Positions 1,924-45,873 are shown, numbered from the stretch's first letter. The stretch is DNA of 61,044 nucleotides from Mycobacteriales bacterium (GCA_046595615.1 JBKJOO010000041.1:1-61044); one strand, 5' to 3'. Notes: generated by a model not told the origin, from the letters alone. Translations and numbers: made by a program.

Positions 1924-2670
1924 ATGACCCCAACACCCTCCGCCAACGCCGCAGGGCCCGCGCGCCTGACCGACAAGGTCGTGGTGGCGCGGCCGACCGC
2001 GCGGCCGACCGCCTTGCGTGGTGGGCCCGTCGGCCAGGGAGTGCGGGAGGTGCAGGTCGGCCGCTCGACCGTTCCCACCGGGGCTGTCACCTTGACGGTG
2101 ACCGTCCCGGACGCCAGGACAGCGGACGTGCTGCAGAGTCTGCTGCCGCTGACGGCCGCGGATGCGTTCCAGCAGGCAACGGACCGCGAGGCGGCGATCG
2201 CCGCCCTGGTCGCCGACGGCGGACGGTTGCGGGCGGCCTCGCCGGCGGGCGGCGCGCAGGCGTACCGCAACGCGAAGGCGCGCGTCGACCTCGCCGCGGA
2301 GTTCCCGCTGCTGTCTGGCGGGCAGGTCGCAGCCGCGGCGCAGTCCGGGGCGGCCAACGCGCACGCGACCGCGTCCCGGTGGCGGACCAAGAACCGTGTC
2401 TTCGCCATCCCCGACAGCGTCGGTTTGCTGTACCCGTCGTTCCAGTTCGACCACCGAGGCCGCCCCCTGCCGGTGATGGCCGCCCTGCTCGCACAGCTTC
2501 AGCCGGCCCTGGACGGGTGGCAGCTCGCCCTTTGGTTCACCACCGCGACCTCCCGACTCGGCGGCCTGCGCCCGGTCGACGTGCTCGACTCTGACGACCC
2601 GACCGACCACGGCCTGCTTCTGGCCGCGGCCCGCGCGCAGGCCGCCGACATCCTCAACCCGGCCTGGTGA
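1924..2670 (+). CDS. Xre/MbcA/ParS-like antitoxin (DUF2384-type C-terminal toxin-binding domain)
   Basis: ATG 1924 with AGGAG 7 nt upstream. C-terminal ..GGLRPVDVLDSDDPTDHGLLLAAARAQ.. resembles antitoxins paired with RES toxins. Stop overlaps the start of the RES gene. Confidence 0.65.
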   Translation: MTPTPSANAAGPARLTDKVVVARPTARPTALRGGPVGQGVREVQVGRSTVPTGAVTLTVTVPDARTADVLQSLLPLTAADAFQQATDREAAIAALVADGGRLRAASPAGGAQAYRNAKARVDLAAEFPLLSGGQVAAAAQSGAANAHATASRWRTKNRVFAIPDSVGLLYPSFQFDHRGRPLPVMAALLAQLQPALDGWQLALWFTTATSRLGGLRPVDVLDSDDPTDHGLLLAAARAQAADILNPAW

Positions 2671-3470
2671 CGCCCTCACTCCCTGGGCAATCCGCGTCGT
2701 CCGTGTCCGACCCTGTGCCCTCTGCGGGGAGTCGCGCCACCGCGGGCGCCTCGGGAGCTGCGAGGCGCCCGGCAGCCCGCCCCGGAGGCAGGGTGCCGTT
2801 GCCGCGGACCCTGCCGGCGCCCGACCTCACCGGACGCCGACCACTGGCGCTCACGTGGCCAGCCGGTCAGCTCGTTGTGCGAGTCCACAACCGCGACTAC
2901 GACGCAAACGCCTTCTGGCCCGGCCGGCCCGGCGGCGCACGCTTCTCCCTGCTGGCCCCGGCGACGAACGCCGCGACGCGTCAAGCGGCGGTCGACCCCG
3001 TTCCCGTGTTGTACGTCGCCGACCATCTCGACGGGGCCCTGTCCGAGTCGGTGTTCCACGCGATCACCCCCACCACCTCGGTGTTGGCCCGCGTCGTCCC
3101 GGGCGCCACGTTGGCGTCCGCGGTTGCGTCGACGCTGCGGCTGAGGCGGCCCGTGACACTGGTCGACCTCACCACCGACGGCCTGCATCGGCTCGGTGTC
3201 GGGCGTGGGGACCTCATCGAGACCGGCCCGGAGTACTACGAGCAGACCGTCGCGTGGGCTGAGGCGTTGCACGCCCTCATGCCTCACGTCGACGGGATGA
3301 CGTGGGTCTCGCGCCAGTACGACACCTCACGGGCCGCGGTCTTGTTCGGGGACAGGATGAGCGCCGACGACCTCGAACTGGACGGCGCCCCGATGGTCCT
3401 GGGCGCCGGCCCGGGCCTCGAGGCGGTCCAGGTCCGCGCTGAACGGATCGAGGTCACGATCAGCTGGTGA
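2667..3470 (+). CDS. RES domain toxin (NAD+-targeting family)
   Basis: R..E..S arrangement (GGARFS ... GALSESVFH ... WVSRQYD). GTGA overlap with the upstream antitoxin. Confidence 0.7.
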   Translation: MTPSLPGQSASSVSDPVPSAGSRATAGASGAARRPAARPGGRVPLPRTLPAPDLTGRRPLALTWPAGQLVVRVHNRDYDANAFWPGRPGGARFSLLAPATNAATRQAAVDPVPVLYVADHLDGALSESVFHAITPTTSVLARVVPGATLASAVASTLRLRRPVTLVDLTTDGLHRLGVGRGDLIETGPEYYEQTVAWAEALHALMPHVDGMTWVSRQYDTSRAAVLFGDRMSADDLELDGAPMVLGAGPGLEAVQVRAERIEVTISW

Positions 3471-3665: not shown

Positions 3666-6600
3666 GTGGCGAAGAGCCCGCGCAACCGTAAGCCGCAGCG
3701 CCGCGCTCGTGGGCCGGTCCCGGCCCCGGCGAACCGGCCGTTCGGAGACTACGCCGCAGGCGGCGCGCCGCCGGAGCTGCCGGACGGACAGTCCTGGGTC
3801 AGCGCAGCCGAGATCGCGGACGTCCTCGATGTGCAAGCCGCCATGGCGAGCGCGTTGGATGACCTCAGCGCGGACGACCTGCTGGGCGTGCTCGAAGGGT
3901 CACACGCCTACGACGGGTGGCGTTCGGCGATGTTGCGCATCCTGGGAATGCCGCACGCGGCGACCGTCAACCGGGCCATGGCCAACCAGTTGCTGGCCCG
4001 CGCCAGGACGGCGCCGTTCCCCGACCCGGACGGGGTGCTGCACTTCAACCTCTCATGGCCCACGACCTCCCTGATCGCCCTCTCGTCCGACCCGCGAGCC
4101 TGGAACGTGGCGCTGGCCAAGGACCCGCTCGAGGTTGTCCGGGCACTCGGGGAGGATGAGCCCACCCTGACCACGGTGCTTAACACGGCCGCGGTGATCA
4201 ACAGGTGCATGTTCCTGGCGACATCCCTCATGCCGGCCCCGCTGGTACGGGTCGGCCTGATCGCCGCCATCGCGGACGAGGCGGCGTGCGCGGCTGTCGC
4301 CCTCAGCATGCTCAGCGCCTACGACGCCGACGCCGCCGACGCGTACGACGCTCTCGAGGAGATGGAGCCGGGACGTCTGCCGGTGCGCGCAGCCGGAGAC
4401 CTGACACAGCTCGGAACACCTGGGCGGGTCGTGCCCGAGACTGCCGAGCAGGCAGCTGAGCTGGACGGCGCGGCCGGCCGCCCGCCTGGCACCAGCTGGT
4501 ACGGCCTGGACGAGGCCGCTGCGGGCAAGGTCGACGAGACGGGCGACGACGAGACGGGCGACGACGAGACGGGGGCAGTTGCTGAGCACAGTGCGGGCGA
4601 CGTGCGGTACCGCGCGACCGGGTTCACGACGCACCTGATCGAAGATCTCGGCCTGGAGCAGCTGACCGTCCAGGTCCTGCGCTCCTGGTCCCAGGTGGCG
4701 GTCGTTCTGCGCGCCGCCGCCGACGACATCGACGCGGGGGACCGCCCGAAGAACGGTGCACTGGAGGCGGCGGACACGTTCATGCGGGTCGTCACCGACC
4801 TAGCCGACCTGTGGGAGTGCACGCCGAGCCGGGACGGGCTCCAGGGTTCCCTGGACGCTGCTGAGGCAGCACTGGCTCGCGGACGTCAAATGGAAGCGGA
4901 CGTCCAGATCCGCCGCGCCCTGCTGCAGCAGCTGAGCGCACTGGCAGCGCCGGCGGCGGCCGAGGCCGACGCGTCGCTGGTCCGTGCTGCCGCCGTGCGA
5001 CGGCTGGAGGGGACCGCCGAGGTCGGCGACCCGGACGAGGACGCCCTGAGCCTTCTCCACGAACTGGCCCGCATCGGCCAGCTGCGCCGCGGCGGTGACG
5101 CTGTGTCCTTCGAGGACTTCCTGGCGGCGGAGCAGCGAGCCCGCACGAGCTTTTCGCACGCGACGCCGCTCGTGGTGGCCGCCAGCCTGGGGGACGTGAC
5201 GTTCCCCCCGCCCAGCGAAGACCCCGCCGAGGCCGCCCAGGTCGCCCAGGTCGCCGAGGTCGCCGAGGCTGGGGGGTTCGGGACAGCGTCGGCCCCAGCA
5301 ACCGACGTGACCTTCTTCGAGCAGCTCCTGAGGACAACGGATCGTCATCAGGACATTCACCGGGCCGCAACCGCGGCTGCCAGCCGTGAAGACGCCACCT
5401 TGGGCGCTGTCGACGAGGCAGGCGACGGGCGTCCCGTCACCGATGTTGACCAGGCAGGGGCTCCCGTCCGCGCGCCGGCCGGACCGGACCCGGTCGAGGC
5501 GTCCGACCCCGATGCGCCGGACGCGGGACGAGTGGCGGCCCAGCCTGCCCCTGGCGAGCCCGACGCGGACGGCCTCGAGGGCCACAAGGGCATCTCGGAC
5601 AGCGACCCGACCGCGCCCACTGAGACCCGTGATGACACCACGAGCGCGCGCCCGAAGCGGCCCACCGCAACGGAGCAGGCCGCCCAGGACGGCACGGGGC
5701 AGTCCCCGCACGCCCAAGACGCAGCAGCCCACCCCTCCCACCGTGAGCCGGGCTCCCACCACAGCCCGAGCCCAGCCGAGCAGGTCGCTGACGACGCTGA
5801 CGACGCCCCAGACCCTGCGGCACCCGCCCTCGACGATCTCGCCCTGGCAGACCTCACCCTCGACGACCTCGCACTGGACGCACTGGACCTCGACGACTTG
5901 ACGAGCGACGAGCCAGCCACGTCGGGCGACACCCTGCACGACCCCCTCGAGGACACCGACGGCGACCGCGACGCGTGGCCGTCCGCAGCCGCAGAGCAAG
6001 AGGCGGCCCGCCACGGCGCGCGAACGGCGTCAGCCGCCGGGCGGTTCGGTCTGGCCGCCGACATCCTGCGCGGCGCCGGCGCCGAACCGGCGTCGATCGC
6101 CGCGCGTGAGCTCGCGGCCTACGCGGCTCAGCTCAGCGACCCCGTCGGCCCGCTCGCCCACGCATTCAGCGCCACCAGCGCCGTCATCAGCCGTGAGGCG
6201 CTGTCCGAGGACCGCGACGGCCACCTGCTGGCCTGGGCCGCCGCAGCACGCGCGGCCGTCACCGCTCCGAACGCCGGACCCGGCACGGTCCTGCCGGAGC
6301 TGCGCCCATCCATCAGCGACCTGCCCGCACTCGACCTGTTGACCGAGACCCTCATTGACGCGGCCCACCGTGGCATCGCGCTCGCCGCGACCGCCGACCA
6401 GGTCACGGACGTCACCGCCTCCGAGGACCGCCTCCGCGCGGCCTCGGACGAAGTCGCCACCCTCCTGAGCGACCGCGGCCGGCGAGTGCTGAAGTTTGCC
6501 CCGCTGAACAAGATCTACAGCGAGTGGCTCAACCCTGACGGCGAACTCGGCCGGATCCTCGACAACGCTGCCGCCGGACAGGAAGGCCGCCCGCCCGCCG

Positions 6601-9600
6601 ACCCGGAGGCGCTGGACGCGTCCGTTCTGGATCTGCGCGGGCACGGAATCGACCGCACGAAGGACCGCTACTCGCAGCTGCGCCGCTCGTCCCAGCTGTA
6701 CGACAACGCGGCCCGCGACATGGCGAACCGGTGGGAGCACGTGCTCGACGTCGTCGCCGAGTACGCAACCTCGCTGCGCGCGGCCAGTGCCGCCCGACGC
6801 CCCAGCGGCGAGTCGCAGACACACACCCAGGCCGTCGACCTGCGCACCCGCCTCATGGGCGCCATCGACGGGCTCGAGACCGACCTCGCCACGTTCCCCA
6901 GCGACACCGCCTCAGCCGTTTCACTGCTTCTTGCTGGCGTGCTCGACGCGTGCCGAGGAACGCTCAGCCCCCGCGTCGAACCGTCACCGGCCTGGGCAGC
7001 CCACCACGAGCTGCTAGCCCTGTGTGTGCCTCTCGACCCCGCGACGCTGACCCCGCCCACCCTGGATCCGAACCACGCCGACCAAGGCGGTTCGACGAGC
7101 ACGCCGCCGGGAGACGAGGAGACGCGTGTCCAGGTCCCCGCGGACAACGCCAGCTACGCCAGCCCAGCCCTGTCCGAGAACGGCACCGGACGGGAAGTCC
7201 CTGACGGGCACGACACCGCAGCGCAGTGGCGCGACCTGCTGCCGGACCTGCTGGCGCTCGCCGAGGACGACGAGACTTCCCCGACCGACCTGTACGCCGA
7301 GCTGGCCGCCGCGAACCTGCACGACCTGAGCGCCGAACTCGTCGACGAGCTGCGTCGGACCGGGTCCGAGCTGGCTCAGACCCTCAGCCGCCGCCGCCGC
7401 GAGGACGTCGACGCCAGCCGCGACCGCCGCGACGCCGCGCTCGATGCGCTGGGACGCGACCTGGACGCGCGCCGGATGTCGGGGGTGCTGTCCGAGGGCC
7501 GATGGTCGCAGCTGTCCCACCAGGTGCAGGAGCTGCGCGGCCCGGCGCGGACCGACTTCCACCGGGTCTCCGCAGCGATCGAACGGATCGGCGTCGAGCT
7601 GGCAGCGGCACAGAGCGACCTCGTCGGGCAGTTCCTCGAGCGGCTCACCGCAGCGACCGCCACCTCGATGACCGTCGCGCGGTACGCGGAAGTCATCCGC
7701 AGCCAGGCTCAGGCGGGCCAGCTCGGGGCGGCCGAGTCGTCGCTGGCCAGCGCAGAAGCCGGCGAGGAGCTGCCGTCCGCCACCTCGGAGGCGACCGACC
7801 ACGTGACCGCGTTCTTCCCCGGCGTGCCGTCCCTGCTGACCGGTGCCCTGCCGCCCGGGCGGCTCTTCGACAACCTGTCCGACGCCGGCCTGGACAGCCT
7901 CGACGAGCTCACCGGGGGTCTGCTGCCGTTCTCGCAGCTGAGCCCGGCCCGGCGCAGCAACGCCCGCAACGCCGTCGAAGCGATGCGCCGCCTTGCGCGT
8001 CTCGGGCAGCAGCCGGCCCAGCTGGTCGACATGCTGCGCCCGATCCTGGCCGAGGCCGGTATCGAGCTGCGCAGCGCCAAGATCGAGCAGACGAGGCCCG
8101 AGCGGTACCTCATCGCGGCCAGCGACGTCGCCACCCTCGGCAGCGCCCGCACCCCGTCGTTCGGGTCGGCCATGACGAGCAACCGCGGCGGCGGGCTGCG
8201 GCTGGTCATCCCACGCGTCACCGCGGTCCCGGTCACCCTCGTGGAGTGGGTGCGTGACCTGCCCGCCGACACGACGGTCATCGCCATCTGGCCCGGACCG
8301 CCGCTTCGGCCAGCGGACTGGCGCGCGCTGGCCGACGCGTCCCGCGGCCGAAAGACCCCCGTCCTCGCCGTGCTCGACACCGCCCTGCTGGCGTACCTGT
8401 GCACTCAGGACAGTCCCCAGGTCGCGACGTTCGAAGCGGTCGTGCGTGCGTTCACGTCCGAGTCGCCGTACAAGGACGTGCCCGGCGACACCGCTCGCGA
8501 GATGTTCTACGGGCGCCGGCGTGAGCTCGCGCAGGTCCTCGACATGCGCGGCCCGTCCATCGTCAGCGGTGGCCGGCAGATGGGTAAGTCCGCCCTGGTC
8601 AAGTGGGCACACCGCCAGTTCGAAACTCGCCCGGGATGCATCGCGATCGACTTCGACATCCACGTCATCGGCGCGCAGGGCGACACGTCCGGGCTCTGGC
8701 CGCAGCTGTGGAACGAGCTGTCCATGCGTGACGTAGTGCACGGGCAGCTCGCTGACGGCGACCAGGCCGCCGCAGTCCACAACGCGGTCAAGCGGTGGCT
8801 GCTCGAGGACGAGAGCCGCCAGCTGCTGCTGCTGCTCGACGAGGCCGACGCATTCCTGGACGCGGACGCCGCCGAGAACCAGTTCGTGGCCGTCAACTGG
8901 TTCCGGCGCCTCATGGACGGCACCGACCACCGGTTCAAGGTCGTCTTCGTCGGGCTGCACCGCACCGCACGCTTCGACTCCCTGCCGAACCAGCCGCTGT
9001 CGCACCTGGGACACATCGGCGTCGGCCCGCTCAGCCCGCAGCACGCGCACGAGCTGATCACCCGCCCCCTGCAGGCCCTCGGGTTCCGTTTCGTCGACCC
9101 GGTCGGGACCCCGGCGCGCATCCTCGCGCTGGCGAACAACATGCCGGCCCTGCTCCAGCTGTTCGGTGCCGCCCTCGTGTCGCACCTGACAGCCCGACCT
9201 GTGCCGGACGACGCGCCGCCGCAGGACGTGACCGACGACGACATCGACCAGGTCTGGGCCGATCCGAACGTCAAGGCGTCGTTCCTGGAGAAGTACCGCC
9301 TGACCCTCAACCTCGACCCGCGCTACCGCGTGATCGCGTACGCCGTCGCGTACGCGGCGCACGTCGGCGGTGTCGGCGCCGGCCTGTCGCTGCGTGACCT
9401 GTCCGCGCAGGTCCAGGAGTACTGGCCCGAGGGGTTCGTCGCGTCGAGCTCGGACGAGATCCGCTCCCTCATCGTGGAGTGCGTCGATCTCGGCCTGCTG
9501 GCCGGAGACGCCCGCGCGTACCGGATGCGGACCCCTACCGTGTGGCGTCTGCTCGGGACCGAGGACGAGGTCCTCGACACTCTCACGACCGCGTCCGAGA

Positions 9601-10727
9601 CACTCCAGCTGCCGGCCCCGACCCGTGGCGCGCACCGCCGGAGGATTGCCCCAGCCGGGCCCAGCGACGGTCTCGGCACTGTCTGCCCGTTGACCGAACG
9701 CCAGCTCGGGCAGCTGGCCGACACCCCCGGTGTCACCGTCATCACGGGCGTGCCCGACACCGGAATCCACAACGTCATCGGGTGCCTGAGCGCCATCGTC
9801 GACGGTCACGGTCTACGCGGTCTGCGCCGCGTCGTGACGGCCGACCCGACACCGAAGTCGCTGACCGACGTCGCCCGCGTGACCGTCCTGAACGCCCGTC
9901 CTGGGCAGGCCTCGACCACACCAACCGACCCGAGCAGCATCCTGATCCTGGTCGACGCGACCGGCCTGAGCGGGAAGGAGCTGTCTGCGCTCCTGGGTTC
10001 GGCTGCCGCGGTCGCCGACCATCACCGCGGCCTGCGGGTGGCGGTCACTGCCGGGGTGAAGAACGTCGGCGGCTGGCTCGGGTGGGCCGACCGGATAGAG
10101 CTGGCCCGCCTCGACCGGGTCGGACTGCGCCTGCTGAGCGACGAAGAGTCGCTGCCCTTCCACGACCCGGACCAGGTCGGGCGGCTCGCCGCAGCGACCG
10201 GGGGCTGGACGTGCGTCCTCGACCACGTCCGAGACCGGGTCCGCGCGGACACCGGCGTCACCCCCACCGCACAGACCGTCCTGAGCGACACGCAGGCGTG
10301 GGTCTCGGGCCGATCTGGTCTCGAGCTGGCCCGGCAGGCCGGTGCCCGTTCAAGCGACCCGGCCGGTCAGGCCTTGGCGGCGGCGCTGACCCGGCTGGCT
10401 GACCTGAGTGGGCCGGACACGCTGCTCAACCTCGTCGACCTGCTCGTCCTCGCTGACGCGGACCGCCCGGTTCGTGGGGCCATCCCAGCCCGCGCCGCAA
10501 CGCCGCGCAGCACCGCGGACACCGGCAGTGCGGCGCGCGCGGGCGCCGCAGTCGAGCAGAGCATGTCGTTCACCCAGCTGGCTGCGGCTGCCGGTTGCCC
10601 GGACATCCGTGGCCTGCTCGAAGCGCTGACGTCGTTGGGGTGGCTCGACCCGATTCCGGGCGGGATGCTGCGACCCGAACCGCTGCTCGTCGCTGCGCTC
10701 GGCTCAACCGCGAGCCGGTCCGCATGA
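3666..10727 (+). CDS. giant P-loop NTPase (~2353 aa): long helical/disordered N-terminal 1600 aa + AAA (ORC/STAND-like) module + degenerate second P-loop module
   Basis: Single 7.1-kb ORF. GTG 3666 preceded by GAGGAAAGAGG (track start 3549 also possible). Walker A SGGRQMGKSAL (~8569-8594), Walker B LLLLLDEADAF (~8824-8848). Degenerate ITGVPDTGIHNV...ILILVDATG (~9731-9960). Confidence 0.8.
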   Translation: MAKSPRNRKPQRRARGPVPAPANRPFGDYAAGGAPPELPDGQSWVSAAEIADVLDVQAAMASALDDLSADDLLGVLEGSHAYDGWRSAMLRILGMPHAATVNRAMANQLLARARTAPFPDPDGVLHFNLSWPTTSLIALSSDPRAWNVALAKDPLEVVRALGEDEPTLTTVLNTAAVINRCMFLATSLMPAPLVRVGLIAAIADEAACAAVALSMLSAYDADAADAYDALEEMEPGRLPVRAAGDLTQLGTPGRVVPETAEQAAELDGAAGRPPGTSWYGLDEAAAGKVDETGDDETGDDETGAVAEHSAGDVRYRATGFTTHLIEDLGLEQLTVQVLRSWSQVAVVLRAAADDIDAGDRPKNGALEAADTFMRVVTDLADLWECTPSRDGLQGSLDAAEAALARGRQMEADVQIRRALLQQLSALAAPAAAEADASLVRAAAVRRLEGTAEVGDPDEDALSLLHELARIGQLRRGGDAVSFEDFLAAEQRARTSFSHATPLVVAASLGDVTFPPPSEDPAEAAQVAQVAEVAEAGGFGTASAPATDVTFFEQLLRTTDRHQDIHRAATAAASREDATLGAVDEAGDGRPVTDVDQAGAPVRAPAGPDPVEASDPDAPDAGRVAAQPAPGEPDADGLEGHKGISDSDPTAPTETRDDTTSARPKRPTATEQAAQDGTGQSPHAQDAAAHPSHREPGSHHSPSPAEQVADDADDAPDPAAPALDDLALADLTLDDLALDALDLDDLTSDEPATSGDTLHDPLEDTDGDRDAWPSAAAEQEAARHGARTASAAGRFGLAADILRGAGAEPASIAARELAAYAAQLSDPVGPLAHAFSATSAVISREALSEDRDGHLLAWAAAARAAVTAPNAGPGTVLPELRPSISDLPALDLLTETLIDAAHRGIALAATADQVTDVTASEDRLRAASDEVATLLSDRGRRVLKFAPLNKIYSEWLNPDGELGRILDNAAAGQEGRPPADPEALDASVLDLRGHGIDRTKDRYSQLRRSSQLYDNAARDMANRWEHVLDVVAEYATSLRAASAARRPSGESQTHTQAVDLRTRLMGAIDGLETDLATFPSDTASAVSLLLAGVLDACRGTLSPRVEPSPAWAAHHELLALCVPLDPATLTPPTLDPNHADQGGSTSTPPGDEETRVQVPADNASYASPALSENGTGREVPDGHDTAAQWRDLLPDLLALAEDDETSPTDLYAELAAANLHDLSAELVDELRRTGSELAQTLSRRRREDVDASRDRRDAALDALGRDLDARRMSGVLSEGRWSQLSHQVQELRGPARTDFHRVSAAIERIGVELAAAQSDLVGQFLERLTAATATSMTVARYAEVIRSQAQAGQLGAAESSLASAEAGEELPSATSEATDHVTAFFPGVPSLLTGALPPGRLFDNLSDAGLDSLDELTGGLLPFSQLSPARRSNARNAVEAMRRLARLGQQPAQLVDMLRPILAEAGIELRSAKIEQTRPERYLIAASDVATLGSARTPSFGSAMTSNRGGGLRLVIPRVTAVPVTLVEWVRDLPADTTVIAIWPGPPLRPADWRALADASRGRKTPVLAVLDTALLAYLCTQDSPQVATFEAVVRAFTSESPYKDVPGDTAREMFYGRRRELAQVLDMRGPSIVSGGRQMGKSALVKWAHRQFETRPGCIAIDFDIHVIGAQGDTSGLWPQLWNELSMRDVVHGQLADGDQAAAVHNAVKRWLLEDESRQLLLLLDEADAFLDADAAENQFVAVNWFRRLMDGTDHRFKVVFVGLHRTARFDSLPNQPLSHLGHIGVGPLSPQHAHELITRPLQALGFRFVDPVGTPARILALANNMPALLQLFGAALVSHLTARPVPDDAPPQDVTDDDIDQVWADPNVKASFLEKYRLTLNLDPRYRVIAYAVAYAAHVGGVGAGLSLRDLSAQVQEYWPEGFVASSSDEIRSLIVECVDLGLLAGDARAYRMRTPTVWRLLGTEDEVLDTLTTASETLQLPAPTRGAHRRRIAPAGPSDGLGTVCPLTERQLGQLADTPGVTVITGVPDTGIHNVIGCLSAIVDGHGLRGLRRVVTADPTPKSLTDVARVTVLNARPGQASTTPTDPSSILILVDATGLSGKELSALLGSAAAVADHHRGLRVAVTAGVKNVGGWLGWADRIELARLDRVGLRLLSDEESLPFHDPDQVGRLAAATGGWTCVLDHVRDRVRADTGVTPTAQTVLSDTQAWVSGRSGLELARQAGARSSDPAGQALAAALTRLADLSGPDTLLNLVDLLVLADADRPVRGAIPARAATPRSTADTGSAARAGAAVEQSMSFTQLAAAAGCPDIRGLLEALTSLGWLDPIPGGMLRPEPLLVAALGSTASRSA
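4533..4575 (+). repeat. in-frame 15-bp tandem repeat (~3 copies, DETGD)
   Basis: gacgagacgggcgac x2 plus a partial third copy, inside the giant CDS. Confidence 0.8.
5232..5267 (+). repeat. in-frame 9-bp tandem repeat (4 copies, AAQ-VAQ-VAE-VAE)
   Basis: gccgcccag gtcgcccag gtcgccgag gtcgccgag, inside the giant CDS. Confidence 0.8.
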
Positions 10728-13099
10728 GCGCCGCCGCAGGACACACGGCGCAGACAGTGCCGACGCTGCCTGAGCTGTCCGGGGAGAGCTCGGTCGTGTT
10801 GAACGCCGCCGCAAAGGCGTTCGCTCGCTTCGCCCTGCTGCACGGGGCTGACCCGGACACCGCGACCCGGGAGGCGCACACCGCCACGACCGTGCTCGAG
10901 CTGTGGGGCAAGTATCCGGCGGTGCGCGCGAAGGTGCGCGCCAGCGTCGAGAAGGCGGCGCAGACCTCACCGGCGTGGGCGCAGGTCGTGGCCTGCCCGC
11001 TCCTGGTCGAGGCCACAGCCAAGGACACCGCGTCCCAGCTGTCGCGGGCCATCGAGCAGCGCCGGCGGGAAGAGAAGGCCCGCGAGCGGCGTGAGAGGCG
11101 TGACGCGGAGCGAGAAGCTGCGAAGAAGCCGCTCGAGGAGGTCCGTGTCGCCCGCGAGGAAGACAAGCTCGAGCAGATCCGGCAGGCCCGCGACCTGGCC
11201 ACCCGGCGCGCGGAGACCGCCGCGCGGGAGGCGTCGCAGCTGCGCGACCAGCTCGAGAGCTCGCGCACCGACGTCGACGACATGTCCGGGCAGCTCGCTG
11301 CCGTCACCGCCCGCCTTCGCTCCGCGCAGGAGCAGCTGACCGACCCGGTCGCGCTGGCCGCCGCGCTGGCCGCCGCGCTGGCCGACCTTGACGTGGACGC
11401 GACCATCGCGCCGGTACCGGCTGGCGGCCTCGGGACCCCGGCCACGATGGCCACCGCGGCCCAGTCGGCCATTGCGCACCAGCTGCCGCCGGAGGCGGTC
11501 GGCTCGGTCCAGCAGTGGCTTCCTGTCCTGCTGCGGGCGCTGACCCGGCCGGTCATCCCGGTCGCGCAGGTGCGTGAGCTGCAGCTGCGCGTGGACGTCC
11601 TCGGCGGTGGCACCGAGGTCGGCGGGTCGTGTGTCCTGGTCGAGGCCGGCGGGACCCGCATCCTCGTCGATGCCGGCACTCGCCCCGGCGCCGGCGTCCG
11701 CCCCCCTCGCCGCATCGAGCATGCGCTGCGTCAGGGAATCGACGCGGTCATCATCACGCACGCTCACGCGGACCACGCCGGCTGGGTGCCGGCGCTCGTG
11801 CGTGACCAGCCGGGCCTTCCCGTCTTCGCAACACCCGCGACCGGTGACCTGCTCGAGGTCATGTGGCCCGACGCCGTCAAGGTCATGGCTGCTCCACGCA
11901 CCCAGATCCGTTCGTACGCGAGCACCGGCTGGGGAACGGAAACGTCTGACGGCCCGCGCGGCGCAGGGGCCGGCACGGGAGGCACGGGAGGCACGGGAGG
12001 CACGGCCAGTGGGGCCGACGGGCGGGAGCGCGACGACGAGCTCGAGGACGATGAGCAGGCGGGCACGGTGCGGCCGTACACGGCTACGGACGTGGCCGCC
12101 GCGATGCGGTCGTTGCGTCCGACGCCGTTCGGGCACGCCCAGCGCATCGGGGAACTCAGCGTCACCCTCTTCCCGGCTGGGCACATCGTCGGCGCGGCCG
12201 GGGTCGTCATCCAGGCCGGCGATCAGCGGGTCGTCGTCTCCGGGGACGTGTCCGGTCCGGGCCAGCTGACGGTGTCCGGTATCGAACTGCCCGAGATCGC
12301 GATCGGCGCGGACCTGATGCTTCTCGAGTCGACGTACGGCGACCATGACCGGATCAAGACCCGCGAGGGCAGCGTGGCCGACTTCGTCGCGCAGGTCCGG
12401 TCCATCATCGACTCCGGCGGTCGGGTCCTCGTGCCGTCGTTCGCGCTGGGCCGTGCACAGGAGGTAGCGCTGATCATGGCGCAGCACCTGCCGCAGGTCC
12501 CGGTCTACGTCGACGGGCTGGCCCGGTCGGTGTCGCGGGTGTACGAGGAGCACGACGGCGCTGACGGGCGCGCCATGCGAATCTTCGCCGGCAACGTGCG
12601 CGCCGTGCGGAACGGTGGTGTTGAGCTGCGGTCGAAGACTCCGGCTGTCATTGTGGCCACGTCCGGGATGCTGACCGCGGGCCCGGCGATCTCGTGGGCC
12701 CGGGAGCTGCTGCCGGACCCGAGCAGCGGTCTGCTCATCGTCGGGTACCAGGACGAGGAGTCCCCCGGTCGGGTCCTGCAGGACCTGGCCCGGACTGGCG
12801 GGGGCACGTTCGACCTGCCGAGTCGGCTCCCGCCCGGGTACGAGACGGTGACGGTCAAGGCGACCGTCGGCTCGTTCCAGCTCGGCGCGCACGCGTCCGC
12901 GCCGGAGCTGGTCCAGATCGCCGACCAGGCCCGCGCGGACACCGTCATGCTCGTGCACGGCGACCGGTCCTCGAGGGTCCGGCTCGGGACCACCCTCGAA
13001 CGGCGCGGTTTCCGCCTCGTCGACGCCGGTGGGCCGCTGGAGCTGCAGACAACAAGCGCACCGCCCGACCATCACGGTCGGGCGGTGCGGGGACTTTGA
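10724..13099 (+). CDS. coiled-coil + MBL-fold/beta-CASP nuclease (791 aa)
   Basis: ATG 10724 overlaps the giant gene stop (ATGA). Charged coiled coil RREEKARERRERRDAEREAAKK.. HxHxDH (ITHAHADHAG ~11752-11782). beta-CASP-like LESTYGD, GMLTAGP, HASAPEL, MLVHGD. Confidence 0.8.
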   Translation: MSAAAGHTAQTVPTLPELSGESSVVLNAAAKAFARFALLHGADPDTATREAHTATTVLELWGKYPAVRAKVRASVEKAAQTSPAWAQVVACPLLVEATAKDTASQLSRAIEQRRREEKARERRERRDAEREAAKKPLEEVRVAREEDKLEQIRQARDLATRRAETAAREASQLRDQLESSRTDVDDMSGQLAAVTARLRSAQEQLTDPVALAAALAAALADLDVDATIAPVPAGGLGTPATMATAAQSAIAHQLPPEAVGSVQQWLPVLLRALTRPVIPVAQVRELQLRVDVLGGGTEVGGSCVLVEAGGTRILVDAGTRPGAGVRPPRRIEHALRQGIDAVIITHAHADHAGWVPALVRDQPGLPVFATPATGDLLEVMWPDAVKVMAAPRTQIRSYASTGWGTETSDGPRGAGAGTGGTGGTGGTASGADGRERDDELEDDEQAGTVRPYTATDVAAAMRSLRPTPFGHAQRIGELSVTLFPAGHIVGAAGVVIQAGDQRVVVSGDVSGPGQLTVSGIELPEIAIGADLMLLESTYGDHDRIKTREGSVADFVAQVRSIIDSGGRVLVPSFALGRAQEVALIMAQHLPQVPVYVDGLARSVSRVYEEHDGADGRAMRIFAGNVRAVRNGGVELRSKTPAVIVATSGMLTAGPAISWARELLPDPSSGLLIVGYQDEESPGRVLQDLARTGGGTFDLPSRLPPGYETVTVKATVGSFQLGAHASAPELVQIADQARADTVMLVHGDRSSRVRLGTTLERRGFRLVDAGGPLELQTTSAPPDHHGRAVRGL
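11972..12007 (+). repeat. in-frame 9-bp tandem repeat (GGCACGGGA x3 + variant; GTG tripeptides) in an insert of the MBL domain
   Basis: Read directly. Encodes GTGGTGGTGGTA. Confidence 0.8.
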
Positions 13100-21551: not shown

Positions 21552-23011
21552 GTGGCCGTCATGCCCGTCCGCCCTCAGCCTCTCGACACCCTGGGTGCGC
21601 CCGCCGCCCGGGTGCCGGCGCCGGTGCGGCAGTCTGGGCTGAGCTTCCGCCTCGACCCGACGAACGTCCAGGCCCGGCAGCTGCTGCGCGCGGCCGGCGC
21701 CCGACGCAAGGCGTACAACGACGGCGTCGCGGCCCTCCGCGTCAACCACACCGCGTGGGCGGCGCAGCGCGACGCCGTGGTCGACGGCAAGGACCAGGTC
21801 AAACCCCTGTCCGCGATCACCCTGCGGGCCGGGTGGAAGACCCGCCGCCCTGACTGGCACGCCATCCACTTCTCCTGGATCTACGACTTCGCCATCCGTC
21901 AGGCCGCGACCGCGCACGGCAACTTCCTCGCCGGCCGGACCCGGTTCCCCCGGTTCGCCAAGCTCGGCCGGTCCAGAGACCGGTTCACCCTCATCGGCCG
22001 GGTCGCCCCCGTGACCGCGGGCACGCTCACCATCCCGAAGATCGGGACCATCCGGATCGCCTCCCCCGACCCGGCCCAGGCGAAGGTCCGCCGGCTCGTG
22101 CGGCGCGGCCGGGCCCGGATCACCAGCGTGACCATCTCGCGGCGGGCGGACGGGACGTGGTGGGCGGCGTGCAGGTCGAACGCCAGCTGCGCACCGCGCC
22201 GGCACCGCACCCGCTTGCTGGCGCGACCGTCGTGGGTGTCGACCGGGGTGTCAAGACCCTCGCCGTGGTCGCGGACGCTGACGGGGTGCAGCGGCTCGAG
22301 CTGCCGACCTCCCGCGCGCTGCGTGACCAGGCGCGCCGGCTCGCGCACGCCCAACGGACCGTCGCCCGGCGCACTGTACGCGGCAAGGACTCGTCGAAGA
22401 ACCGAGTCAAGGCGGTGAAGAAGGTCGGGCGGCTCCACGTCCGGGTCGCCACCCGACGAGCCGACATGCTGCACGCGTTCACCGCGAAGCTGACCCGGCA
22501 GCACCCGACCCTCGTCCTCGAGACCCTGACCACGAAGAACCTCATGGCCAACCACCACCTCGCCGGAGCTATCGGCGACCAGGGGTGGGGTGAGCTCGCC
22601 CGGCAGGTCACGTACAAGGCCGCCTGGCGCGGCGGCACGGTGCTCGTCGCACCACGATTCTTCCCGAGCAGCAAGACGTGCTCAGGCTGCGGGGCAGTGA
22701 AACACAAGCTGCCCCTCAACGTTCGGCTGTACCGATGTGAGCGATGCGACCTGGTCCTGGACCGGGACGTCAACGCTGCCGCGACCCTCGCCGCCTGGGG
22801 CGAGCACCAGCAGGGCACCTGCCCTTGCCTCGGTGGCTCCCGGGTCCGCGACCGCCACCCTGGCGGCCGGTCAGACGCGGACCCGCCGAGTGTCGGTGGG
22901 TTGCCGCGTCATGCCTGTGGAGGGTGGGTGTCAGGGTCGGCCACAGCTGTGGCCGTCCCGGTGCTGCCCGACGAAGCAGGAACCAGCCCGTCACGCACCC
23001 GCGTGGCGTAA
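21552..23011 (+). pseudogene. tnpB: TnpB-like RNA-guided nuclease (OrfB), single frameshift near nt ~22165
   Basis: Two overlapping ORFs (21552..22418, 22157..23011) join as ..SRRADGTWWAA|VQVERQL.. RuvC-like GVDRG, LVLETL, LDRDVNAA. Zinc ribbon CSGCG..x14..CERC. Confidence 0.75.
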
Positions 23012-23173
23012 GCACTGGAACGCCCCGGACAGGGGCGCTCTGCGAGGTCGACTATCACACCGAGATCGTAGAGGGGGGCCGCCCCACACGACCACCAAGG
23101 TCAGCCGTGATCGCGCCGATGTCGGTGGGTGCGCATACCGTACAACCCAGCGAATGTACCGAAAGGGGGACAG

Positions 23174-24805
23174 ATGACGAACGTAGCCGCCGAGTACCGC
23201 CGGGTCGCCTCCGCGTACGAGCAGCCGACGCTCACGCTTATCTCGCGCAAGTCATCAGCCGCCGTCATCGCGGTGTTCCGCATGATGTTCACCACCGAAC
23301 GCCCCAGCGTCCCCACCGCCCGTATGCACGATCAGGTCGACGTGCTCCTGGCCGACCTGCACCGCGCCGACCTGGACGACATCCCCGCGGTCAACGGACG
23401 CGACGCGTGTCTGCGCTGGGTGCGCGACGGGTGGCTCACCCGCACGTCCGATGACAGCGGCGACGAGGTCTACTCCCTCACCTCGAGCGCCCTCGATGGG
23501 CTGCGCACCGTCGAACGGCTGACCCGTGACCGGTCCGTGTCCCTCAGCACCCACCTCATCTCCGGGCTGGTCCACCACCTGCGTGACTTCTCCGCGTCCA
23601 TCACCCCGGACGTCGAGTCGTACATCGCCGCCCGGACCGAAGAGATCGCCCAGATCCGTGAGGAGCTCGACCGGGTCCTGGCTGGCGGCGAGCTGAAGGA
23701 CATCTCGGACGACAGCGTCGTGGCCGGTTTCACCGAGCTGCAGCGCTTCATCGGCGAGCTGCCCGGCGACTTCAGCCGGGTCGTCGAGTCGTACCGCGAC
23801 TTCGAGCAGCGGACCTTGGCCAACTTCCGCGCCGAAGCGGTCCCCAGTGGCGAGGCCGTCCAGCGCTACCTCGACCACGTCTCCACGATGCAGACCTCGT
23901 CGGCCGCCGGCCGCGGCTTCCAGGGCGCTCTCGAACTGCTCAACGACACAGTGCTGCTCGACCAGGTCCAGCGGTACATCGAGACGCTCGTCGAGGACCC
24001 GCGAGCGCAGTCCCTGCTGACCCCGACCGAGCGCGCCCAGATCCGCAACACCGTGCCCCTCATCCGGCACGGGCTGTCGCGGGTCACCCTGCAGCGCAGC
24101 CGCGTCTCGATGACGCTGCACGAGTACATCACCTCGCATGACGTCAAGCGCGACCACGAGCTCGCCGCGGTCCTGCGCGAGCTCGAGACCGAGCTGTCCA
24201 CCTGGATGCAGACCGCGACCGCCCGCGCGAAGGCCCCTATCGACCTGCTCCCGCCGAGGCCCGACGTGCAGCACCTGCCCACCAAGATGTTCGACCCGGC
24301 CGAGGACTGCGCTCCGGCCCCGCTGGCGCTGCGCTCGACTCCGGCCAGTGACGGGGTGACCCGCGCCGAGCTGCGAGCGCGGGGCGGACCGTCGCACGCC
24401 CGTCTGCGCGAGGAGCTGAGCGATGCGCTGCTCAACGGAGATGGGCCGTCCCTCGCGGCGGCGTTCCACGACCTGCCGGATGACCTGCGCCGGCCCGTCG
24501 AGCTCCTGGGGCTGCTGCCGCTGGCCCGCCGGCACGGACTCGAGCCGACCGACGACGTCGAGGTGTTCGACACCGTCCGCCCTGACGGCAGCCGCCGGCT
24601 CTTGGTGGTGCCGATGTACAGCCGGCCAGCCGCTGGCGCGGGCGGTTCAGCCAGCTCTCGCGGCGCAGACCCAAGCACGGGCCCTGCCAGCAAGGTTGGC
24701 ACGGCCAACCCGTCACCCCACTTCAACGACGCCGCACCCGACCAGCCCGACCAGCCCGACCAGCCCGACCAGAGCCGCCGACCAGGAGACCACCACCATG
24801 AGTGA
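23174..24805 (+). CDS. jetA: Wadjet JetA (MksF-like kleisin, DUF3375-type)
   Basis: ATG 23174 after GGGGGA. First gene of a 4-gene overlapping operon with JetB/C/D. Size and N-terminal sequence fit the DUF3375 family. Confidence 0.8.
   Translation: MTNVAAEYRRVASAYEQPTLTLISRKSSAAVIAVFRMMFTTERPSVPTARMHDQVDVLLADLHRADLDDIPAVNGRDACLRWVRDGWLTRTSDDSGDEVYSLTSSALDGLRTVERLTRDRSVSLSTHLISGLVHHLRDFSASITPDVESYIAARTEEIAQIREELDRVLAGGELKDISDDSVVAGFTELQRFIGELPGDFSRVVESYRDFEQRTLANFRAEAVPSGEAVQRYLDHVSTMQTSSAAGRGFQGALELLNDTVLLDQVQRYIETLVEDPRAQSLLTPTERAQIRNTVPLIRHGLSRVTLQRSRVSMTLHEYITSHDVKRDHELAAVLRELETELSTWMQTATARAKAPIDLLPPRPDVQHLPTKMFDPAEDCAPAPLALRSTPASDGVTRAELRARGGPSHARLREELSDALLNGDGPSLAAAFHDLPDDLRRPVELLGLLPLARRHGLEPTDDVEVFDTVRPDGSRRLLVVPMYSRPAAGAGGSASSRGADPSTGPASKVGTANPSPHFNDAAPDQPDQPDQPDQSRRPGDHHHE
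24737..24772 (+). repeat. in-frame 9-bp tandem repeat (CCCGACCAG x4; PDQ x4) in the JetA C-terminal tail
   Basis: Read directly. Confidence 0.85.
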
Positions 24806-25922
24806 CCAACACCCCACGGGCACGCCCGGACTGGGCGAGCTCACCCTGGACGACCTCGACCTGGGCGGACTGTCCCTCGGCGACCTCGAGCAGCTGGACG
24901 AGCTGGACGAGCTGAACGGCCTGGAGGAGCTGCAGTCGCTGAGACCTCAGACACCGGGACGCGCAGGGCGCGGCCCCGACGTGCCGCAGGTGCGCAGCTG
25001 GCCAGCCGATGAGACCTCGCTCGCCTCGCTGGAGGACGCGGACGAAGACGGGCCCGAGGGCGACGATCCGGAAGGTGAGAACACGGAGGGAGAGGCTGAC
25101 CACGCCGACGAGGAGAGCTACCTGCTGGACGACTCGACCTCCCTGTGGGGTGGCGACAAGGGCACGCTCGACCAGCGCCAGCGAGACACCCTGGTCGCGC
25201 TGCTGAAGAAGGCCTTCATCTCCTCCGACGACACGAAGGAGTGGCGGAGCCTGACCAAGGACCCGGCACCGATCGAGTCCGCGCTGAACAACCTGTACTT
25301 CACCTTGGTCGTCGATGTTCGGTCCGAGGTGGCGTACGCGGCGCCCGCACGCAACGACAGCAACCCGTTCCGCACCCTGGTGCGGGACGCCCCAAACACG
25401 CGCGAGGAGACGCTGCTGCTGGTCCACCTGCGCGAGCGGTTCCGGACCGCGAGCGCGTCCGGGGACCAGTTCGCCTACACCGACCTGGACGCAATCCAGG
25501 CGTACGTGAGGCGGTTCCGCCCCGCGTCCGCGACCGACGAGGCCCTGGACGGGCGGCGGGTCCTCAACGCGGTCAAGTCCCTCAAGACCGCCGGCCTGCT
25601 GGTCACCACCCAGGACGAGACCCGGTACCGGATCCACCGGGCCATCGAAGCCGTCCTGCCGCTACCGAAGCTGCACCAGCTGGTGGCCGGTTTCCAGAAG
25701 CTGCGCGCCGAAGCTGGACCCGGACCCGACACCAGCGGCGAGGACGCCGTCGAGGGCCCCGTCGAGGGCCCTGCTACCGAGGTCGACGTCGACGAGCCGA
25801 TGTACGCGACCCAGCCCCGCCTCAGCGACCCCGGTGACCCCGGCGGCCCGGCCCGGTCTGCTGACCCTGCTGACCCTGCTGACCCTGCTGACCCTGCTGA
25901 CCCTGCTGACGACGCTCCCTAG
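24798..25922 (+). CDS. jetB: Wadjet JetB (MksE-like, DUF4194-type)
   Basis: ATG 24798 (AGGAG 9 nt upstream) overlaps the jetA stop by 8 nt. Acidic N-terminus, then LWGGDKGTLDQRQRDTLVALLKKAFISS.. typical of DUF4194. Confidence 0.8.
   Translation: MSDQHPTGTPGLGELTLDDLDLGGLSLGDLEQLDELDELNGLEELQSLRPQTPGRAGRGPDVPQVRSWPADETSLASLEDADEDGPEGDDPEGENTEGEADHADEESYLLDDSTSLWGGDKGTLDQRQRDTLVALLKKAFISSDDTKEWRSLTKDPAPIESALNNLYFTLVVDVRSEVAYAAPARNDSNPFRTLVRDAPNTREETLLLVHLRERFRTASASGDQFAYTDLDAIQAYVRRFRPASATDEALDGRRVLNAVKSLKTAGLLVTTQDETRYRIHRAIEAVLPLPKLHQLVAGFQKLRAEAGPGPDTSGEDAVEGPVEGPATEVDVDEPMYATQPRLSDPGDPGGPARSADPADPADPADPADPADDAP
25860..25910 (+). repeat. in-frame 9-bp tandem repeat (GCTGACCCT x5 + partial; ADP x5-6) in the JetB C-terminal tail
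   Basis: Read directly. Confidence 0.85.
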
Positions 25923-25930
25923 GAGGACTC

Positions 25931-35755: not shown

Positions 35756-35951
35756 GATGCCCCCCAAAGCGGTGCGGAACGACGAGCGGTTGCCCGCGGC
35801 GACTGGTCGGGTGGATGGTCCGGGGTGCCGGGGCGGTCGCACGCACCACAGGTGGGGGTGGACGACGCGCCCGATTGTTCCATGGGGGTGTGACAACTCG
35901 GACATCACGTCCCCCGCCGCCGCCCAACGCACGCTCGAGGGCAAGGGGCCA

Positions 35952-36006
35952 CTACGGCAACAGGTGGGGGAAATGAGCGCGCATTCTGGCCGCGAAGCGC
36001 TTAGCG
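35952..36006 (-). repeat. 33-bp core repeat, copy D + GCGCTTAGCG flank, ~190 bp upstream of the SbcD-like gene
   Basis: Plus strand ctacggcaacaggtgggggaaatgagcgcgcat...gcgcttagcg. An adjacent 11-bp hairpin gcggcctagct/agctaggccgc lies at 36004-36030. Confidence 0.85.
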
Positions 36007-36333: not shown

Positions 36334-36338
36334 GACCG

Positions 36339-45867: not shown

Positions 45868-45873
45868 GTCAGG

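Follow-up and report, generated by a model that had tools for sequence, protein, structure and literature searches.

A stretch of 61,044 nucleotides from a Mycobacteriales bacterium (GCA_046595615.1 JBKJOO010000041.1:1-61044), referred to here in its full length as the window, carries at positions 3,666 to 13,099 two overlapping plus-strand genes that encode a giant protein of 2,353 residues with a nucleoside triphosphatase (NTPase) module in its last third and a 791-residue coiled-coil nuclease of the metallo-beta-lactamase (MBL) and beta-CASP type. The pair belongs to a large and unnamed family, which we propose as new, in which an ATPase of about 2,000 residues is combined with a translationally coupled, swappable nuclease. 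The giants of this family have about 1,800 to 2,450 residues, a helical region, an alpha/beta domain and a GGRQLGK[ST]/LLLDEAD module in the last third, and are accompanied by an adjacent same-strand nuclease or helicase gene that in most cases overlaps their stop codon; the window giant and its partner show all of these features. We consider it reasonably probable that the pair is a two-gene NTPase-plus-nuclease conflict module, most likely anti-phage or anti-plasmid, in which an NTPase sensor or scaffold would license an RNase effector.

Both genes are real. The frame of the giant is open on the plus strand from 3471 to the TGA at 10725-10727, with GTG 3549 as the earliest in-frame start; the GTG at 3666 has a Shine-Dalgarno-like run, GAGGAAAGAGG, just 5' of it, and yields a product of 2,353 residues, in agreement with the recorded gene call (P0001). 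The giant gene, a predicted sensor/scaffold NTPase, is placed at 3666-10727 by its open reading frame (ORF), its ribosome-binding site, a third-position G+C content (GC3) of 0.87 and homologues of about 1,800 to 2,450 residues in more than 80 loci. The partner gene at 10724-13099, assigned through Pfam, NCBIfam and PDB matches and through alignment, encodes the coiled-coil beta-CASP nuclease that is the predicted RNase effector. The two meet in an ATGA stop/start overlap at 10724-10727, read directly in the sequence and kept as ATGA or GTGA in the loci of the beta-CASP clade, which points to translational coupling. An earlier reading made from the sequence alone had described a 7.06-kb ORF overlapping a 791-residue ORF in this way, and that description is exact to the nucleotide. 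The DNA is 72% G+C, long open frames are common in it, and antisense ORFs of more than 900 codons overlie both genes. Third-position against second-position G+C content (GC2) is 0.87 vs 0.54 for the giant and 0.86 vs 0.56 for the partner, and both genes have homologues, with E-values down to 1e-190; because of this signature and these homologues, both plus-strand frames are coding and not chance open frames.

At the level of its predicted fold the C-terminal third of the giant is an AAA+ NTPase of the Arch_ATPase/ORC-Cdc6/STAND-like kind. The AlphaFold2 (AF2) models of the giant are of medium confidence, and the C-terminal one, spanning residues 1481-2353 with a predicted local distance difference test score (pLDDT) of 67 overall and of 80-92 in the ATPase core, gives the order small alpha/beta domain, AAA+ core and lid, winged-helix-like region, second alpha/beta domain and helical tail. 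The core, lid and winged-helix-like region (residues ~1610-1980; 8493-9605, like all features of the two genes given below on the plus strand) were delimited by Pfam AAA_22, AF2 and Foldseek, and contain FYGRRRELAQVLD at residues 1614-1626, together with the Walker A sequence GGRQMGKS (residues 1635-1642; 8568-8591) and the Walker B sequence LLLLLDEADAF (residues 1720-1730; 8823-8855) found by motif search. AAA_22 is the sole Pfam family matched by the giant, at residues 1629-1765 and with 27.7 bits against a cut-off of 27. Foldseek aligned the ATPase model with 2fna (E 3e-8), 2qen (3e-7), ORC2 (1w5s, 4e-6) and CED-4 (1e-5), and at lower rank with the plant NLR RPP1, Dark and Avs3 (1.2e-4); CED-4, RPP1, Dark and Avs3 lie between E 1e-5 and 1e-4, and Arch_ATPase and ORC2 score better. 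The ORC/Cdc6- or STAND-like P-loop of the sequence-only reading was therefore correct at fold level. Among 86 family members the GGRxxGK[ST] Walker A and the Walker B Asp-Glu are invariant in 85-86, and the arginine of an FxGR motif, a GLH motif and several further arginines are invariant or nearly so; given this invariance, the NTPase is under selection as an enzyme.

Three further elements frame this module. Ahead of it lies the small alpha/beta domain (residues ~1511-1580; 8196-8405), modelled as three strands plus helices at residues 31-100 of the AF2 model, with the family consensus RVLxVWxRP...LVxDDAxLAYLA. Behind it lies the second, P-loop-like alpha/beta domain (residues ~2011-2145; 9696-10100; strands and helices at 531-665 of the model), with ITGVPDTGIHNV at residues 2026-2037 and ILILVDATG at 2092-2100. 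A second, degenerate P-loop had been proposed here: the alpha/beta domain is indeed present in the model, but the Walker lysine is missing from its ITGVPDTG...ILILVD sequence, as it is from the family consensus GSxATG, and the domain is probably inactive. The C-terminal tail (residues ~2146-2353; 10101-10724) is helical in a low-confidence part of the model and holds a conserved ATGGW motif (10197-10208), taken from the family alignment, of which T2178 and W2181 are invariant and G2179 and G2180 nearly so.

The partner protein is, judged by its sequence, a distinct member of the RNA-cleaving TTHA0252/aCPSF1/CPSF73/Cas14 clade of beta-CASP enzymes, with intact catalytic motifs. It begins with a helical head (residues 1-95; 10724-11008), a candidate docking domain that is weakly conserved among 12 partners and has no family match in Pfam. 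A charged coiled coil follows (residues ~97-250; 11012-11473), recognized by composition and by coiled-coil matches; residues 111-215 are 46% D/E/K/R, and residues 97-247 match only SMC, JetC and Rad50 coiled coils in NCBIfam and in PADLOC, the latter used throughout for defence-system matching as PADLOC-DB v2.0.0 (2023). The coiled coil occurs in all aligned partners and is longest in the window copy. The catalytic part comprises an MBL domain (Pfam Lactamase_B, residues 297-514; 11612-12265), a beta-CASP domain (Pfam Beta-Casp, residues 579-684; 12458-12775) and an RMMBL, or RNA-specificity, domain (Pfam RMMBL, residues 709-762; 12848-13009). Motif search located HAHADH at residues 346-351 (11759-11776), motif A, LESTYGD, at residues 534-540 (12323-12343) just 5' of the beta-CASP domain, the motif B histidine in HASAPEL at residues 723-729 (12890-12910) and the motif C histidine in VHGD at residues 744-747 (12953-12964).

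In the alignment of 12 partners, which were gathered by tblastn on the neighbourhood DNA of giant-family loci, metal-binding motifs 1-4 and beta-CASP motifs A-C are all kept, and motif C is His. A histidine at this position is reportedly characteristic of RNA-specific beta-CASP enzymes and a valine of DNA-specific ones. The top PDB sequence matches are the Thermus RNase TTHA0252 (7.5e-42), aCPSF1/FttA and CPSF73 (1e-38 to 1e-33) and Cas14 (2.7e-34), and INTS11 is also among the relatives of solved structure. An RNase effector is likelier than a DNase because the nuclease is of the RNA-cleaving beta-CASP clade. Pfam, NCBIfam, PDB matches and alignment thus agree on the architecture that had been read from the sequence, in which a helical head and a charged coiled coil precede a complete MBL/beta-CASP nuclease, and every motif then quoted for either protein is found at its expected position.

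Thirteen further actinomycete loci also contain the pair (L001/L009, L008, L010-L013, L015-L018, L020, L088 and the partial L089). Together with the window these form clade A of the family, which accordingly holds the window, 11 species genomes from the genera Micromonospora, Sphaerisporangium, Thermomonospora, Actinomadura, Nonomuraea and Spirillospora, the partial L089, and L088, the closest homologous pair. A 4-nt stop/start overlap is present at all 12 complete junctions read in these other loci, as ATGA or GTGA in 11 of 11 genome loci and also in L088; the translational coupling is thus conserved. The giant and the partner are the only genes common to all clade-A loci, and they are always adjacent throughout the clade; homologues lying mostly apart in housekeeping neighbourhoods, which would have spoken against a module, were not what was found. 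A third conserved gene was considered and rejected, as a gene of ~270 residues is common only to five related Actinomadura/Spirillospora loci. A neighbor-joining tree of the ATPase module places the window protein on the deepest branch of clade A, which is monophyletic and sister to clade B.

Outside clade A the giant ATPase is a constant chassis, and the adjacent nuclease has been exchanged several times between clades. In clade B (23 loci, mostly Streptomyces) a protein of ~770 residues, with no detectable family in Pfam or PADLOC, is encoded upstream of the giant, and in about ten loci, those in which the DNA examined extends far enough for it to be visible, this is preceded by a tandem DinG-like plus DpdF-like helicase of ~1,950 residues. 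The commonest partner is that of clade C (22 loci across phyla), a coupled downstream HEPN-like protein of 350-550 residues that, with starts as assigned, overlaps the giant stop by 4 nt in 14 of the 22 loci, two of them at TTG, the remaining partners starting within 14 nt of that stop. Its C-terminus has an invariant RNxLAH, the HEPN Rx4H signature; when 23 such partners were scanned (the 22 genome loci plus plasmid locus L091), five matched HEPN_Swt1 weakly, one more HepT and one RNase 2-5A. A profile of the HEPN-like partner found nothing meaningful in the PDB, so its assignment rests on RNxLAH and the weak Pfam matches. Clade D (6 cyanobacterial loci), nested in the tree within a broad and paraphyletic clade C, has a PLD+SNF2 helicase partner that is a full-length match to the PADLOC CRISPR-linked candidate 'HKD+Snf2' (C3a139, E 1.5e-129); the partner class tracks the ATPase phylogeny.

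The C-terminal half of the giant (corresponding to window residues ~1227-2019) is also part of pPIWI-RE fusion proteins that exceed 3,100 residues and are encoded in pPIWI-RE-type operons with REase, helicase and PIWI genes, as in P0015 and in a 3,256-residue protein of Azospirillum oryzae plasmid NZ_CP054617.1 (L090:4519-14289; H17), and seven further plasmid matches annotated 'RNaseH domain-containing protein' are probably fusions of the same type. Because the nuclease partner has been swapped repeatedly on a constant ATPase, the family has the character of a conflict system, and the sensor-plus-effector arrangement suggested in the sequence-only reading gains strength from it.

Some further observations concern these other clades. 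The tandem helicase of clade B is sometimes accompanied by RNase_T (examples are L003:135-14340, L002, L004, L007 and about 20 further loci), and clade-B loci often lie beside ScoMcrA, McrBC, MmeI or pPIWI-RE systems. The ~770-residue protein was tried as a diverged pPIWI-RE and rejected at an hhalign probability of 0.4%. Six cyanobacterial giants (L037:4910-12265, L042, L044, L045, L050 and L058) embed a complete sigma-70 factor, with regions 1.2, 2, 3 and 4 at Pfam E-values of 1e-12 to 1e-22, at residues ~234-496 and thus far N-terminal of the ATPase; in PADLOC this segment is recognized by the MzaA model (E 1e-58). The window giant has no sigma-like part.

The distribution of the family is accessory and patchy, and includes plasmids. 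A word-based search returned 14 full-length relatives of the giant, of 1,800-3,150 residues and all unnamed, and an exhaustive HMMER scan with its C-terminal 873 residues returned 2,822 representatives of clusters defined at 50% identity, 1,611 of them at E<=1e-30. Most have 1,800-2,300 residues, the last third of which contains the module, and those that are shorter look fragmentary. To date members carry no annotation other than 'hypothetical protein' or 'AAA family ATPase'. At least 195 loci occur among 185,579 species genomes (one genome per species), in Actinomycetota, Cyanobacteria, Alpha-, Beta- and Deltaproteobacteria, Verrucomicrobia, Latescibacterota, Chloroflexi-like lineages and others. 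The locus comparison covers 80 of these, in which the giant ORF has ~1,700-2,450 residues, plus further loci up to L091. The family is carried by 25 plasmid records, 15 of which are non-mobilizable large replicons. No member was found in 50,697 phage records and only 5 loci in IMG/VR, and a phage-encoded origin was rejected on these counts. A transposon (TniB-like) role was likewise rejected, with a single weak TniB match (L077) and no conserved transposase adjoining the family. Among the plasmids, the 119-kb pSR118 of Salinibacter ruber (L091:6806-13725) carries a 1,927-residue family member with a 377-residue HEPN-like partner; this pair is flanked by IS110-type and other transposases, and a 1,721-residue DUF3320 protein is encoded nearby.

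The window pair could not be matched to any named anti-phage system in the sequence-only reading, and PADLOC in its 2023 release assigns neither gene to a described one. The giant has no sequence match in PADLOC, NCBIfam or the PDB, and the partner has only coiled-coil and generic MBL matches in PADLOC, at E>=8.6e-4. The giants, the ~770-residue protein and the HEPN-like and beta-CASP partners of other loci have no PADLOC match either, the exceptions in other clades being the sigma-70 segment (MzaA) and the PLD-SNF2 partner (C3a139).

Several described systems nevertheless share parts of the design. Avs/AVAST proteins such as Avs3 (8dgc) likewise combine a large ORC/STAND-fold NTPase with a nuclease effector and a big non-catalytic, possibly sensing region, but in Avs the effector is fused N-terminally and the sensor is C-terminal, whereas the giant has its helical region of ~1,500 residues at the N-terminal side, the NTPase in the last third and the effector in a separate coupled ORF. 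A STAND-type C-terminal repeat sensor (TPR/LRR/WD40-like) was not found in the giant by Pfam, and behind the ATPase the AF2 model shows an alpha/beta domain and a short helical tail. Pfam nSTAND1/6 gave weak or below-cut-off matches in relatives only, and the PADLOC Avs/NLR models gave none. In fold, the ATPase, lid and winged-helix part is closest to Arch_ATPase (PF01637; SSO1545, 2fna, and PAB2304, 2qen) and ORC/Cdc6, with which the giant shares the FxGR...GxxGxGK[ST] and hhhhDE layout; the Foldseek template-modelling score to the target is ~0.6 (0.61 for 2fna) at a sequence identity of 13-16%. Those proteins are stand-alone and of ~350-400 residues, whereas the giant module sits in a multidomain protein of ~2,000. 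Sequence membership of PF01637 or ORC-Cdc6 is not reached: the relatives give weak Pfam matches to ATPase_2, AAA_16, AAA_22 and TniB, with ATPase_2 at 26 bits against a cut-off of 33.2.

For the nuclease the closest precedent in immunity is Cas14, a separate beta-CASP RNase effector that is recruited by a large recognition complex in type VII CRISPR-Cas (8yhd; PMC13069675), and that was the only described beta-CASP immune effector found in the literature. The Cas14 sequence match noted above covers partner residues 475-687 only, leaving the head and coiled coil unmatched, and the partner scores 173.6 bits against the cut-off of 800 of the Cas14 equivalog NF045584. There is no CRISPR-array-like tandem repeat and no Rfam match in the window, nor any Cas5 or Cas7 gene among the neighbours, and a CRISPR link for the Cas14-like nuclease was rejected on the lack of arrays and Rfam matches. 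With aCPSF1/FttA, CPSF73 and TTHA0252 the partner shares the catalytic fold and all motifs, including RMMBL, but unlike aCPSF1 it has no KH domains and has a different N-terminal head with a coiled coil, and unlike housekeeping beta-CASP RNases it is rare, patchy and strictly linked to the giant ATPase gene. It reaches 209.9 bits against 580.2 for the aCPSF1 equivalog TIGR03675, matching through residues 438-761 only, and 25 bits against 400 for RNase J TIGR00649. Nor is it a Wadjet or SMC protein, as JetC/LmuB/SMC matches cover residues ~25-247 at E 9e-4 to 0.1, and Pfam finds no AAA_23 or SbcC_Walker_B domain in it.

The swapping of nucleases is reminiscent of BREX and BREX-related (BR) systems, in which an ORC/Cdc6-like BrxC or DUF499 ATPase and an inactive STAND protein (BrxB) are combined with swappable HEPN, HKD-SNF2 or restriction endonuclease (REase) components (PMC12839542). 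The giant family similarly joins an AAA+ scaffold of ORC/Cdc6-like type to a P-loop domain that has eroded and to nucleases that can be interchanged; its second alpha/beta domain, as modelled, may resemble iSTAND, and the HKD+SNF2 partner of cyanobacterial clade D resembles the Type-2 BR helicase effector. Unlike in BREX, the ATPase occupies the C-terminal third of a protein of ~2,000 residues. The giant has no DUF499 or BrxC match in Pfam or PADLOC, and neither in the window nor in the loci of the beta-CASP clade is the pair adjoined by a methyltransferase or PglZ gene. With pPIWI-RE triads, whose helicase is DinG-like, the family shares the type of helicase found in clade B; the window module has no PIWI, REase or helicase gene, and the 2013 pPIWI-RE paper makes no mention of ATPase fusions (PMC3702460).

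The remainder of the giant lies N-terminal of these domains. Its N-terminal region (residues 1-260; 3666-4445) is weakly conserved and recognizable in the closest homologue only, with residues 44-258 showing 26% identity to residues 7-208 of the L088 giant by blastp. A low-complexity, Ala/Asp-rich stretch with DETGD and DDLAL repeats, delimited by composition (residues ~261-790; 4446-6035), is specific to the window copy, and homologue alignments begin only at about residue 790. From there a conserved all-helical region (residues ~791-1500; 6036-8165) forms a candidate sensor or scaffold surface; it is modelled entirely as helices at pLDDT 76 and is conserved family-wide. A Foldseek search of residues 760-1500 against the PDB returned a best E of 0.68, with no fold match. 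By composition and AF2 model, helical and low-complexity sequence thus occupies about 1,500 residues on the N-terminal side of the NTPase module. The partner has a window-specific insertion of its own, a Gly/Thr-rich and acidic segment of ~45 residues in the MBL domain (~11933-12067) that is missing from the 11 other aligned partners and from L088, and which contains the 9-nt repeat at 11972-12005. Tandem Repeats Finder (TRF) located in-frame tandem repeats of 9, 12 and 15 nt, up to 100% identical, inside both genes (4532-4573, 5225-5268, 5825-5897, 11350-11384 and 11972-12005); they encode DETGD, DDLAL and GTG within insertions that the homologues are without, and by their sequence they look like recent slippage-type expansion in disordered segments. 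Over the last partner codons lies a perfect GC-rich hairpin (13057-13089; 15-bp stem with 12 GC), a possible terminator or RNA-stability element. It was reported on the minus strand; its stem is palindromic, so it would also form in the plus-strand transcript, where no T-tract follows.

The neighbourhood of the pair had been read as RES/Xre, TnpB, Wadjet and SbcCD genes, of which the RES, Wadjet and SbcC/SbcD-like genes stand. A RES-domain gene (2595-3470, +; Pfam E 8.5e-14) lies just upstream of the pair, a complete Wadjet operon (23111-30903, +; DUF3375 JetA, DUF4194 JetB, JetC and JetD) 10 kb downstream, and beyond it an SbcC-like (AAA_27/AAA_23, ~1,300 residues) and SbcD-like (Metallophos) pair (31098-36376, -). 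The presumed Xre-type antitoxin (1849-2670, +), by contrast, has no Pfam match at E<=0.01, and all that can be seen of TnpB is an HTH_OrfB_IS605 segment (E 7.8e-8) in a fragment at 21552-22415 (+), which is probably an accessory gene of the IS605/IS607 family in truncated or decayed form. Pfam recognizes none of the ORFs from 13.3 to 21 kb. Defence neighbours occur in six of the eight family loci with annotated context: RES and Wadjet in the window; a JetD-like four-gene operon (L088:960-9131, -), divergent from and immediately adjoining the pair, in L088; ScoMcrA, an SLFN-like helicase, a NERD-kinase and an MmeI-type enzyme in L003; a pPIWI-RE triad in L004; McrBC in L005; and DUF2397 in L007. 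The two independent co-locations with Wadjet-type systems, in the window and in L088, may or may not be meaningful.

Farther along the window, 37818-42221 (-) encodes a 1,467-residue FHA plus FtsK/SpoIIIE ATPase protein of EccC/EssC-like architecture. A second giant ORF (46864-53151, -; 2,096 residues, GC3 0.84), which has no PDB sequence relative, lies directly upstream of genes for three proteins, a MoxR-like AAA+ ATPase (2r44, E 9e-62), one with DUF58 and one with a transglutaminase core; the genes beside it are at 45874-46863, 44575-45873 and 42209-44905 (-).

Taken as a conflict module, the pair suggests the following working model. The head and coiled coil of the partner would dock it on the giant, where it would be kept inactive until the helical region of the giant, or its winged helix, recognizes a cue derived from the invader. 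The AAA+ module would then undergo an NTP-dependent conformational change or oligomerization, and this switch would release or position, and so license, the beta-CASP RNase, which would degrade invader RNA, host RNA or both and lead to growth arrest or abortive infection. Here the physical association of the two proteins, sensing by the helical region, NTP-dependent licensing, the RNA substrate and the defence phenotype itself are all what we infer; the two genes, their conserved coupling, the intact catalytic motifs, the exchange of partners between clades and the patchy distribution are computational results.

Several points weigh against this reading. Housekeeping functions prevail among both beta-CASP RNases and ORC/Cdc6-like ATPases. 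The helical region contains no recognizable sensor repeats and has no counterpart in the PDB by Foldseek, and hhalign reveals no docking domain common to the partner classes: a shared one was rejected when the beta-CASP heads, compared with the HEPN-like partners and the ~770-residue protein, reached probabilities of <=0.3%. The 91 ORFs that flank 11 clade-A genome loci proved in a Pfam census to be mostly genes of housekeeping and secondary metabolism, typically for lipases, kinases, transporters and biosynthetic enzymes, and only L012 and L013 of these loci carry GmrSD, Eco57I-type and SNF2 genes. A consistent defence-island context for the beta-CASP clade was rejected on this census; the context proposed earlier applies to the window, to L088 and to the helicase clade, but not to most beta-CASP-clade loci. 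Since five Actinomadura/Spirillospora loci have a downstream gene in common, vertical inheritance is suggested there rather than mobility. Finally, a limited text search of the literature, which could have missed a description from 2024-2026, returned no named system: work covering a HEPN census, pPIWI-RE, BREX-related systems, a STAND survey, language-model Streptomyces systems and beta-CASP immunity holds no description of the family, and the paper on Ceres, Geb, Veles, Prithvi, Ukko as well as Oshun mentions neither a beta-lactamase-fold nor a HEPN component.

The most serious rival, which we nevertheless hold to be unlikely, is a housekeeping or regulatory complex for RNA processing or transcription, in which the giant would be a scaffold like that of a degradosome or a factor associated with RNA polymerase, and in which processing or termination of cellular transcripts would fall to the beta-CASP enzyme, as it does to RNase J, aCPSF1/FttA and CPSF73. 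Such a role would suit a nuclease from the clade of RNA 3'-end processing and termination enzymes, the complete sigma-70 (regions 1.2-4) in six cyanobacterial members and the ordinary metabolic genes around most beta-CASP-clade loci. It sits poorly with a family so rare and patchy in species genomes and present on plasmids, and with the exchange of its partner for HEPN-like, PLD-SNF2, helicase and PIWI fusion forms, which is typical of conflict systems; the partner also falls far under the aCPSF1 and RNase J equivalog cut-offs (210 vs 580 and 25 vs 400 bits). Immunity and transcription might also be joined, in that the giant family would be an immune chassis acting on transcription, engaging the RNA polymerase or nascent RNA of an invader so that the RNase cuts or terminates co-transcriptionally. 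The embedded sigma-70 of the six cyanobacterial members, the place of the partner in one beta-CASP clade with the archaeal termination factor FttA/aCPSF1 and eukaryotic CPSF73, and the HEPN-like RNase as commonest partner all hint at this, and we give it a small chance.

Two further explanations are improbable, and to much the same degree. The same NTPase-plus-nuclease logic might serve regulated cell suicide or kin conflict in filamentous 'multicellular' bacteria, with a developmental or stress trigger. The family is centred on Actinomycetota, on filamentous Cyanobacteria and Polyangiaceae, and on Chloroflexi-like lineages, a phyletic pattern said to be that of NTP-dependent conflict systems in multicellular prokaryotes. 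Members are found as well in unicellular Proteobacteria, Salinibacter, Verrucomicrobia and Latescibacterota, however, and Pfam detects no effector-associated or death-like adaptor domains of the kind typical there. Alternatively, the pair could be a selfish addiction or stabilization module akin to toxin-antitoxin systems, in which the giant ATPase would inhibit a nuclease that acts as toxin, and invaders would not be sensed. An antitoxin of ~2,000 residues with a strictly conserved, active-type NTPase would far exceed the needs of addiction, 15 of the 25 plasmids are non-mobilizable large replicons, and most loci are chromosomal and without mobile-element genes; these points stand against the tight coupling to a potentially toxic downstream nuclease, the very presence on 25 plasmids, the transposase neighbours seen for instance in L091, and the RES toxin gene immediately upstream in the window. 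Least probable is a DNA-repair or DNA-end-processing machine with an ORC-like loader and a beta-CASP enzyme acting on DNA like Artemis/SNM1 or a ligase-associated exonuclease, which could draw on a weak NCBIfam match to a ligase-associated DNA-damage-response exonuclease (68 bits, with the cut-off at 325), on the SbcC/SbcD-like and Wadjet genes of the window and on the DNA helicases and PLD nucleases of sister clades, but which is contradicted by best sequence matches that are all RNA-cleaving beta-CASP enzymes, by the RMMBL domain, by the motif C histidine and by a commonest family partner that is HEPN-like and so implies an RNase.

If the defence reading is true, the family would add a large new chassis to prokaryotic immunity, with some 1,600 clusters in many phyla and on plasmids, and with the partner described here a beta-CASP RNase would for the first time be known as an effector in a setting other than type VII CRISPR-Cas. 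It would also amount to a natural experiment, in which one NTPase of ~2,000 residues has been wired to four or five nucleases (beta-CASP, HEPN-like, PLD-SNF2, the DinG/DpdF-like helicase and pPIWI-RE), from which it could be learned how one sensor controls unrelated effectors. If the family does not serve defence, a conserved giant ATPase and RNase complex with sigma-70 fusions in some members would represent new RNA or transcription biology. A defence role would also bear on the little explored immunity of actinomycetes and cyanobacteria, organisms of importance both for antibiotic production and for phage-based strain engineering.

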